DNA from: a virus
Taxonomy: Duplodnaviria; Heunggongvirae; Uroviricota; Caudoviricetes
IMG/VR virus record: IMGVR_UViG_2874920711_000002
Location: 1-42,995 of that record
DNA length: 42,995 nt
Direction: 5' to 3' (one strand)
Below, piece after piece: positions 41,456-42,995 of the stretch (its first letter is position 1; each line of letters begins with the position of its first letter). Under the pieces are notes generated by a model. That model did not search any database. It had not been told where the DNA came from and worked only from the letters and a program-made list of their open reading frames with translations. The translations under genes and the position numbers were made by a program.

Positions 41456-41797
41456 ATGACACATGAACCCATTAATACATATCGTCGCCGTATAGCTGTT
41501 GCGGCACTCCATAGAATAAAACGTAAAACAGGTGGTGATCTGCTTATTGTTGACCTTCTGGATGGGAACATTACGACCATAGAAATAACAGAACAGTTTA
41601 TAAACCAGTTGCTGTTACGCTTTGAAGGTATTACCCGTGGTGAATTGGGCCGAGTGGAGGGTGAAACCGAAATCCGCACTGCATACCAGAATGCTATCGG
41701 GATTAATCAACATACTGAATACCAGGCTGAAACCGGAAAGTTAATTATAGACAACCTTTTACAAGAGGTTATTGATTACGCGAAAGAAAAATATTGA
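41456..41797 (+). CDS. Hypothetical protein with Arg-rich N-terminus, probably truncated by IS600
   Basis: 113 aa, MTHEPINTYRRRIAVAALHRIKRK…; its TGA stop is the first three bases of the IS600 left end. Confidence 0.4.
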   Translation: MTHEPINTYRRRIAVAALHRIKRKTGGDLLIVDLLDGNITTIEITEQFINQLLLRFEGITRGELGRVEGETEIRTAYQNAIGINQHTEYQAETGKLIIDNLLQEVIDYAKEKY

Positions 41798-42121
41798 GGT
41801 AGCCTGAGTTTAACGGACACTCCTTCCTGAAATAGAATGGCATCAGAAGGAGCTAATAATGAGCAGAAAAACCCAACGTTACTCTAAAGAGTTCAAAGCC
41901 GAAGCTGTCAGAACGGTTCTTGAAAATCAACTTTCGATCAGTGAAGGCGCTTCCCGATTATCCCTTCCTGAAGGCACTTTAGGACAATGGGTTACCGCCG
42001 CCAGAAAAGGACTCGGTACTCCTGGTTCCCGCACGGTGGCTGAACTGGAATCTGAAATTCTGCAACTGCGTAAGGCGTTAAATGAAGCTCGCCTTGAGCG
42101 AGATATATTAAAAAAAGCAAC
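41795..42121 (+). mobile_element. IS600, second copy, left part, interrupted by IS30
   Basis: From the left end TGAGGTAGCCTGAGTTTAACGG… through the first ~88 codons of OrfA this copy follows the first copy (26664 onward); it breaks at 42121 where IS30 begins. Confidence 0.8.
41859..42121 (+). pseudogene. IS600 OrfA interrupted by IS30
   Basis: Matches the copy-1 OrfA through …ILKKAT, then continues into IS30 end sequence. Confidence 0.75.
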
Positions 42122-42995
42122 TGTAGATTCAATTGGTCAACGCAACAGTTATGTGAAAACATGGGTTGCGGAGGTTTTTTGAATGAGACGAACATTTACA
42201 GCAGAGGAAAAAGCCTCTGTTTTTGAACTATGGAAGAACGGAACAGGCTTCAGTGAAATAGCGAATATCCTGGGTTCAAAACCCGGAACGATCTTCACTA
42301 TGTTAAGGGATACTGGCGGCATAAAACCCCATGAGCGTAAGCGGGCTGTAGCTCACCTGACACTGTCTGAGCGCGAGGAGATACGAGCTGGTTTGTCAGC
42401 CAAAATGAGCATTCGTGCGATAGCTACTGCGCTGAATCGCAGTCCTTCGACGATCTCACGTGAAGTTCAGCGTAATCGGGGCAGACGCTATTACAAAGCT
42501 GTTGATGCTAATAACCGAGCCAACAGAATGGCGAAAAGGCCAAAACCGTGCTTACTGGATCAAAATTTACCATTGCGAAAGCTTGTTCTGGAAAAGCTGG
42601 AGATGAAATGGTCTCCAGAGCAAATATCAGGATGGTTAAGGCGAACAAAACCACGTCAAAAAACGCTGCGAATATCACCTGAGACAATTTATAAAACGCT
42701 GTACTTTCGTAGCCGTGAAGCGCTACACCACCTGAATATACAGCATCTGCGACGGTCGCATAGCCTTCGCCATGGCAGGCGTCATACCCGCAAAGGCGAA
42801 AGAGGTACGATTAACATAGTGAACGGAACACCAATTCACGAACGTTCCCGAAATATCGATAACAGACGCTCTCTGGGGCATTGGGAGGGCGATTTAGTCT
42901 CAGGTACAAAAAACTCTCATATAGCCACACTTGTAGACCGAAAATCACGTTATACGATCATCCTTAGACTCAGGGCAAAGATTCTGTCTCAGTAA
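42122..42995 (+). mobile_element. IS30, left portion (runs off the window)
   Basis: Starts with the recalled IS30 terminal repeat TGTAGATTCAATTGGTCAACGCAACAGTTATGTG; contains the IS30 transposase ORF. Confidence 0.85.
42183..42995 (+). CDS. IS30 transposase, partial, with apparent C-terminal frameshift
   Basis: MRRTFTAEEKASVFELWKNGTGFSEIANILGSKPGTIFTMLRD… matches the IS30 transposase; 270 aa here against about 383 aa expected; the last residues diverge. Confidence 0.85.
   Translation: MRRTFTAEEKASVFELWKNGTGFSEIANILGSKPGTIFTMLRDTGGIKPHERKRAVAHLTLSEREEIRAGLSAKMSIRAIATALNRSPSTISREVQRNRGRRYYKAVDANNRANRMAKRPKPCLLDQNLPLRKLVLEKLEMKWSPEQISGWLRRTKPRQKTLRISPETIYKTLYFRSREALHHLNIQHLRRSHSLRHGRRHTRKGERGTINIVNGTPIHERSRNIDNRRSLGHWEGDLVSGTKNSHIATLVDRKSRYTIILRLRAKILSQ

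Follow-up and report, generated by a model that had tools for sequence, protein, structure and literature searches.

The right end of the window, by which we mean the whole 42,995-nucleotide stretch of viral DNA that was analysed, runs into a nested pair of insertion sequences. It is near certain that a complete IS30 is inserted here in a complete copy of IS600, which itself sits in a phage ORF. This IS600::IS30 arrangement is ordinary and already known, and annotations of it exist in thousands of genomes. What is mildly unexpected is only the generality and the precision with which IS30 targets the frameshift window of IS3-family elements. Specifically, IS30 is found between IS600 nt 327 and 328, 4 nt downstream of an A7G run, and comparison shows this position to be a sequence-specific IS30 hot spot that is common to IS3-family elements (TATTAAAAAA[A/G]GCN-NN-NGC).

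Results

The second IS600 copy and the IS30 nested within it

Two IS600 copies are present in the window (Table 1), and the left end of both reads TGAGGTAGCC. The second begins where a sequence-only reading of this DNA had placed it, and the same reading was right that the upstream phage ORF is terminated by the element. The TGA stop codon of this ORF is formed by the first three bases of IS600, and the insertion lies 6 codons before the end of the ORF. In a related prophage, from E. coli RMDEC332, we found the restored 119-aa ORF together with an empty TAT site (GAAAAATATATCAGCGG). An in-register comparison of positions 26664-26990 with positions 41795-42121 reveals identity at 327 of 327 bases, and this is the only long direct repeat in the window, with a spacing of 15,131 bp. 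A perfect 327-bp repeat that is joined to a canonical IS end is evidently no chance match. Both copies show few differences from a copy annotated by RefSeq as 'IS3-like element IS600 family', and the same DNA in other genomes has been labelled IS600 and IS30 by RefSeq annotators.

The A7G run of the second IS600 is located at 42110-42117, and the IS600 part stops 4 nt beyond it. At 42122, exactly where an interruption by IS30 had been proposed, the IS600 sequence gives way to the left inverted repeat of IS30, TGTAGATTCAATTGGTCAACGCAAC, and both this repeat and the transposase models agree with the proposal. When read directly, the left and right inverted repeats of IS30 match at 22 of 25 terminal bases (IS30 repeats are 26 bp long). 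A chimeric ORF crosses the joint, and its TGA directly abuts the ATG of the IS30 transposase. The window genome has 4 places that encode this same 107-aa chimeric protein.

Table 1. Positions of the two IS600 copies, the nested IS30 and neighbouring features, in window coordinates unless locus L003 of CP026824.1 is named
Feature	Position	Strand	Remark
Rz spanin	25151-25741		left of copy 1
Endolysin	25945-26454		left of copy 1
GAA, 3-bp target duplication of copy 1	left 26661-26663; right 27927-27929		flanks read directly
IS600 copy 1, plain, without IS30	26664-27926	+	1263 bp, canonical 1264
A7G slippery run of copy 1, -1 frameshift window	26979-26986	+	inside 26967-27030 orfA/orfB overlap
Holin	28316-28789	-	right of phrog_2572 gene
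Truncated phage ORF, phrog_1737, function unknown	41456-41797	+	113 aa versus 119 aa uninterrupted
TAT, left 3-bp target duplication of second IS600	41792-41794		right copy at L003 12822-12824
Second IS600 copy, nt 1-327	41795-42121	+	left inverted repeat and truncated orfA
Chimeric ORF	41859-42182	+	107 aa; IS600 OrfA residues 1-88 (HTH_Tnp_1) read through into IS30 left end
AC, left 2-bp IS30 target duplication	42120-42121		right AC at L003 11886-11887
IS30, first 874 bases	42122-42995	+	left inverted repeat 42122-42147; runs off window end
IS30 transposase, N-terminal part	42183-42995	+	matches NF033563 (IS30-family transposase model) and Pfam HTH_38
TAT, right duplication of second IS600	L003 12822-12824		outside window

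The remainder of both elements was recovered from genome CP026824.1. One of its loci (L003), retrieved by using the truncated 113-aa phage protein, begins with 11,540 bases that match the right end of the window without a single difference, and it reaches 8.8 kb to the right of the window end. The other halves of IS30 and IS600, which the sequence-only reading had expected to be found by extending the sequence rightward, are both present in this locus, and the AC and TAT duplications are intact. The last base of IS30 is L003 11885, and the AC after it is a second copy of the AC on the left of the element. IS600 nt 328-1264 then resume (L003 11888-12821) and are followed by TAT. The right-hand IS600 segment in the window is therefore no isolated fragment, as IS600 continues after IS30. 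If IS30 is removed, the second IS600 measures 1261 bp in the window genome and 1264 bp in the sister strain (genome CP027027.1), and IS30 itself measures 1219 bp and 1221 bp, respectively (IS30 = 1221 bp). Eight long and independent contigs, which come from different assemblies, have the order phage-IS600-IS30-IS600 at the TAT site.

To the right of the composite lie 40 bp of phage DNA, followed by an IS2 left end interrupted by IS630, and then by yecE'. The ParE-SPFH-xis-int arm is missing from the window prophage and is kept in a related strain. A separate IS-associated deletion, on the right and next to the IS630 copy, has already removed the int/xis arm. We infer that the host of the element is a defective phiP27-like prophage of the Shigella dysenteriae-type genome CP026824.1. 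The genome is assigned to S. dysenteriae because a near-identical prophage is carried by CP027027.1, which is presumably linked, by its consecutive accession number, to the S. dysenteriae E670/74 plasmid CP027028.1.

The first IS600 copy

Copy 1 is a plain IS600. Its termini (TGAGGT...ACCTCA, or TG..CA) match at 6 of 6 terminal positions and belong to imperfect inverted repeats with a conserved GCGGACAC block. The orfA and orfB genes occupy the 0 and -1 frames, with the orfB frame open from 26967 and orfA ending at 27030, and a programmed frameshift in IS600 is annotated by RefSeq. OrfA carries an HTH_Tnp_1 domain, and for OrfB there are matches to NF033516, a model for IS3 transposases, and to rve. 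The AC dinucleotide that is used by IS30 as a target remains uninterrupted in this copy, at 26989-26990.

Copy 1 interrupts a gene on the plus strand (phrog_2572; 88 aa; function unknown) that has the holin gene on one side and the endolysin and Rz spanin genes on the other. An intact empty site is present in loci L033 and L034. Because the sister strain has an intact empty copy 1 site and carries the composite at its TAT site, copy 1 is a very recent, strain-specific insertion, and the nested copy is older.

A recurrent IS30 hot spot in IS3-family elements

To define how often the joint occurs elsewhere, we used a 161-bp probe that spans it and counted matches over at least 80% of the probe length. 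The same-orientation IS600/IS30 junction is present in 1,284 of 5,426 complete E. coli genomes, K-12 laboratory strains included, and the probe also matches 36 plasmids. RefSeq labels at the junction sites read partial transposase, IS30 transposase and partial IS600 transposase. A joint in the opposite orientation is present in 590 genomes. For example, in strain 504838 an inverted IS30 occupies the same dinucleotide, with IS600 halves of like orientation on both sides.

The preference extends to relatives of IS600. In IS911, IS30 occupies the homologous dinucleotide, where the target reads TATTAAAAAAGGCT-AC-AGCGC. IS911 and IS600 are so diverged in nucleotide sequence that blastn aligns them over only 20 bases, those of the hot spot. 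IS911-like and other IS3-type elements also carry IS30 at this location in the opposite orientation, such that both orientations are represented overall. We arbitrarily picked four IS30 copies in E. coli as lacking an IS600 flank, and three of these reside inside IS3-family elements at the hot spot. In a scan of one genome per species, IS30 ends abut TTAAAAAA-N6 in E. coli, E. albertii, S. flexneri and Kluyvera, as well as in Serratia, Buttiauxella, Citrobacter, Silvania, Yersinia aleksiciae and Ferrimonas, and several different IS3-type left contexts are found among the scanned ends.

The IS600 target is nearly palindromic around the AC dinucleotide, with 7 of 11 positions being symmetric. 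Hot spots for IS30 have been described as nearly palindromic and as giving rise to 2-bp duplications (PMC9333248), and the interruption of IS911 by IS30 in K-12 has likewise been reported (PMC9333248; PMC5379014). The sequence-only reading had treated the IS30 insertion without the knowledge that its position corresponds to a recurrent hot-spot event rather than a one-off.

Order of events at the phage ORF

We favour, with some reservation, an order of events in which IS600 arrived first and IS30 entered the resident copy afterwards. IS600 inserted by ordinary transposition, with a 3-bp TAT duplication. In the favoured order it landed in the phage ORF while still plain, and an IS30 circle or dimer junction would then have integrated into this resident IS600 in situ, in line with the sequence-only reading. 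A precedent is provided by an IS600-like copy adjacent to ospC4 on the virulence plasmid. This copy is old and diverged, with 90 differences from canonical IS600, and 111 plasmid records, which belong to S. sonnei, S. boydii, S. dysenteriae and enteroinvasive E. coli, have it without IS30. In S. dysenteriae E670/74 (CP027028.1), the same copy carries IS30, its flanks are 99.6-99.7% identical, and compared with the copy of ATCC 12021 it shows only 11 differences. The diverged sequence reaches as far as both IS30 junctions, so this event is an in-situ insertion and not a conversion.

Plasmid CP027028.1, which presumably belongs to the sister genome CP027027.1, is also instructive in other ways. 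All 5 of its IS30 copies are located in IS600 at the hot spot, with 3 of them pointing one way and 2 the opposite way, and no IS600 on this plasmid retains an uninterrupted hot-spot site. In the window genome, four IS600::IS30 composites were detected. Their IS30 parts are free of substitutions relative to one another, and their IS600 parts differ at 5 SNP positions, a pattern consistent with a young IS30 having moved into IS600 copies that were older and differed from one another. Copy 1, the youngest IS600 and one that the sister strain lacks, has remained plain.

The strongest alternative, although one that we consider rather unlikely, is that IS30 entered an IS600 at some other location at an earlier time, and that the resulting 2.49-kb composite, which retains both IS600 ends but is unable to make OrfAB, subsequently reached the phage ORF as a single piece, copied by transposase that intact IS600 copies provided in trans. 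This possibility draws on the identical junction at no fewer than 4 sites of the window genome, each of which has its own perfect duplication (GTA, CTAC, TAT and ATG), and on two further composites in a related strain (TGC and inside int). However, the presence of 5 SNP sites in the IS600 parts and of none in IS30 is the reverse of what recent copying of a composite should leave behind, unless gene conversion has intervened. IS30 has the same orientation at 6 of 6 chromosomal IS600::IS30 sites in these Shigella genomes. This uniformity would have a chance of ~0.03 if orientation were random, and it fits the copying of one pre-formed composite. Both orientations nevertheless coexist on the sister-strain plasmid, and the ospC4 copy documents that in-situ insertion of IS30 into a resident IS600 has taken place in that strain.

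The local distribution of the composites also speaks for copying as a unit. The four composites in the window genome lie within ~165 kb, and two of three unselected new IS600-type insertions in the prophage across strains are composites located less than 8 kb from the TAT copy. A plain IS600 intermediate at the TAT site is absent from the 8 resolved contigs, all of which carry IS30, and this absence counts against the in-situ order and for arrival as a unit. A comparable search at 'site C' of the virulence plasmid was uninformative, as all that it yielded was another insertion, located in S. boydii at a distance of 52 bp. Copy 1, which is intact and recently active, is a possible source of the transposase, but IS3-family transposases are known to act preferentially in cis, as has been established for IS911. 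We also looked for diagnostic SNPs that every composite carries and plain IS600 lacks, which might indicate a single origin for all composites, and found none, with the variation among IS600 copies being sparse and mosaic.

Compared with insertion of IS30 into the resident IS600, acquisition by gene conversion seems highly improbable. Under such a scheme, a plain IS600 at the TAT site would have gained IS30 by homologous recombination with a composite copy, with no transposition at the site. The homology arms available for such an exchange are long (327 bp and 937 bp) and more than 99% identical, and the SNPs of the IS600 copies are mosaic rather than tree-like, which points to exchange between copies. 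Nothing that is specific to the TAT site supports conversion, however, and this process is excluded at ospC4, the one site where it is testable.

Sequence quality

The assembly that provides the window is affected by small gaps. A comparison with the sister genome CP027027.1 reveals 44 one-base gaps and only 4 substitutions in 32 kb, and many window genes are split where the sister strain has intact versions. Such a homopolymer-prone long-read assembly might raise the concern that repeats were wrongly joined at the IS600/IS30 boundary, but this is exceedingly improbable given that the identical arrangement is present in 8 independent contigs of different assemblies, that the junction occurs in over a thousand finished E. 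coli genomes, and that both target duplications (AC and TAT) are intact.

The ORF for the IS30 transposase ends early, at 270 aa, where GGG is present in place of GGGG (42973-42975). The orthologous transposase in the sister strain is intact, with 383 aa and a score of 276 bits against NF033563. Because gaps far outnumber substitutions in the comparison with the sister strain, this frameshift is probably an assembly error. A second one-base gap in IS30 is located in the 5' leader (42163-42165). Relative to a RefSeq-annotated IS30 (locus L001) and to the sister-strain copy, the element exhibits no substitutions and only these two gaps. Both gaps, along with the missing base of copy 1, are best read as homopolymer assembly errors. 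The leader gap is common to all four composites of the window genome and is not found in the sister-strain orthologue. This gap is also seen in one independent short contig, and it may be a systematic assembly error.

Discussion

Consequences for the element and the prophage

Insertion at this position separates orfA and the slippery site, at which IS600 makes its OrfA-OrfB fusion transposase, from orfB, such that the second IS600 would be unable to make its own transposase. The element keeps both ends as well as 327 and 937 bp of homology, and it could therefore serve as a substrate for RecA-dependent deletion or be mobilised in trans. The direct repeats share 327 bp at 100% identity and 937 bp at about 99.6% identity, and a RecA-dependent deletion of 15.1 kb is plausible on these grounds. 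The sequence-only reading had proposed that the two direct copies, about 15 kb apart, would permit the loss of the early region and of the whole lysis cassette. The orientation and the spacing are as claimed, and the holin does lie inside the interval. In contrast, the endolysin and spanin genes are outside, and the lysis cassette would be lost only in part.

In addition to the holin, the interval between the copies carries a PmrD-like gene, Q, rusA and dnaB/dnaC-like genes. It also contains Rha/Ash genes, an IS5-family element, cro-like and cI-like (immunity) genes, and small ORFs. We saw no product of a deletion of the 26.6-41.8 kb interval, and copy 1 is absent from all of the relatives' loci examined. 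Because copy 1 is private to the source strain, only the closest relatives of this strain could carry the deletion. For the window itself, the finding adds two further IS insertions to a prophage that was defective already, in a Shigella genome rich in IS elements. Annotators should treat the transposase ORFs that are cut short near the window end as one nested element rather than as separate fragments.

IS30 as a possible antagonist of IS3-family elements

One speculative extension of these findings, which we put forward only tentatively, is that IS30 acts as a site-specific parasite of IS3-family insertion sequences. The preferred target would be the frameshift window (A6-7G followed by GC), and each insertion would uncouple orfA from orfB and disable the host element. 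If this is true and has not been described before, it would be an instance in nature of an insertion sequence that polices another one, and such policing might shape the expansion of IS3-family elements in Shigella. The reproducible targeting of this window by IS30 could be modestly informative about how insertion sequences limit each other during the IS expansions that go along with the decay of Shigella genomes.

Comparison with known systems

The two direct IS600 copies, 15 kb apart, resemble the arrangements that give rise to IS-flanked deletions, such as variants of the Shigella virulence plasmid. Deletions through homologous recombination between direct IS copies have been summarised previously (PMC9330008). 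Unlike those variants, the IS600 pair in the window has no observed product, and the actual deletion is on the right, beside IS630.

With regard to target choice, our observations agree with the hot-spot (HS) targeting by IS30 reported by Olasz, Kiss and co-workers, as described in PMC9333248. Shared characteristics include a near-palindrome, a 2-bp duplication and repeated use of the site in both orientations. In contrast to the hot spots of that description, the one noted here resides inside another mobile element, at its translational frameshift window.

A composite closely similar to that of the window is the IS600::IS30 of E. coli chromosomes and plasmids (for example in SCU-106 and in plasmid pZ1322HEC0003-2), which has the same internal junctions, orientation and AC duplication, with more than 99% identity. 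However, the E. coli copies are at other sites, where a clean 3-bp duplication at the outer flanks is mostly missing, whereas the copy in the window retains an intact TAT duplication and interrupts a phage ORF.

A further parallel is provided by the IS911::IS30 elements of K-12 (IS30A in CP4-6, and the KpLE2 copy). There, too, IS30 is found at the homologous dinucleotide after the A-run frameshift signal with an AC duplication, and orfA is parted from orfB. The present case differs in that the host element is IS600 and the location is a Shigella prophage. The two host elements also meet at one site, as a K-12-derived genome that we examined carries a fecE-adjacent IS30 flanked by a 5' part of IS600 and an inverted 5' part of IS911.

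Recurrent nesting and apparently rearranged IS30 copies

On the 149-kb virulence plasmid CP027028.1 of S. dysenteriae E670/74 (L061-L063), which is presumed to belong to the sister strain, all five IS30 copies reside in IS600 at the same dinucleotide, with orientations split 3:2, and no IS600 with an uninterrupted frameshift window is present anywhere on this plasmid. Elsewhere the nesting extends to a third level, with IS630 within IS30 within IS600 at L006 and likewise at L007, L009 and L023. The IS30 span that carries IS630 at L006 is 2376 bp, versus the normal 1221 bp.

Other copies appear to have been rearranged. 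Near the fec operon of an E. coli K-12 derivative, IS30 is bounded by the 5' part of IS600 on one side and by an inverted 5' part of IS911 on the other, and target duplication is absent from these flanks. Because the flanks are mixed and lack this duplication, recombination between two IS30 copies in different IS3-family hosts is suggested as the origin of this arrangement, and similar inverted arrangements are present in L018 and L010. In E. coli O157:H7, an IS600 5' fragment stops at the hot spot, and all that follows of IS30 is 25 bp of its right end, in inverted orientation. This remnant is the scar of a lost IS30; many O157, O103 and O111 genomes show the same 108-bp pattern.

Clustering in the chromosome and loss of the prophage arm

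Four IS600::IS30 copies encoding the identical 107-aa read-through protein (L020-L023) fall within approximately 165 kb of the 4.97-Mb chromosome CP026824.1. This clustering may reflect local hopping. These copies were found by exact-match look-up in an error-prone assembly, and the clustering may instead be an ascertainment effect of that procedure.

Just beyond the right-hand end of the window, after the nested element, 40 bp of phage DNA lead into the left end of IS2, which is interrupted by IS630, and then directly into yecE'. A deletion has removed the prophage arm with its ParE-like, SPFH, xis and int genes from L003, L004, L006 and L007. This arm is kept in L005, where an additional IS600::IS30 lies inside int.

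Sequence quality and the transposase junction

Compared with the sister strain (L004/L033, CP027027.1), the window (1-42995) differs by 44 single-base gaps versus only 4 substitutions in 32 kb. Split ORFs are numerous and include the dnaB-like gene, the endolysin, the IS30 transposase and the holin/DUF1327 fusion. Such a gap-rich difference looks like homopolymer error of a long-read assembly rather than pseudogenisation. In this variant the stop codon of the chimeric IS600 OrfA' lies immediately before the IS30 transposase start. Speculatively, IS30 transposase synthesis could conceivably be coupled to translation driven by the IS600 promoter, but such coupling hinges on a one-base gap, itself perhaps an error of the assembly.

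Other elements of the window

The IS5-family element has inverted repeats of 27 bp with 85% complementarity. The 111-aa gene between Q and the holin has a sister-strain counterpart of identical length that matches Pfam PmrD, and it looks like a prophage cargo ('moron') gene.

Locations of the features discussed (L-numbers are fetched loci)
Feature	Position	Size	Strand	Remarks
Endolysin	window 25945-26454
Holin/DUF1327 fusion	window 28316-28789
111-aa gene	window 29545-29880	111 aa	+	between Q and holin; phrog_4407 match
IS5-family element	window 38199-39117	919 bp		immunity region, between Rha-like and cro-like genes
ORF of IS5-family element	window 38606-39055			matches NF033580
OrfA'/transposase junction	window 42180-42185			TGAATG
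Right flank of nested element	L003 12822-14500
Three-level nesting	L006 10667-13042
K-12 IS30 with mixed flanks	L013 3256-5065			adjoining fecE
O157:H7 IS600 fragment	L017 2250-2620			near ure cluster
Clustered IS600::IS30 copies	CP026824.1 147-312 kb
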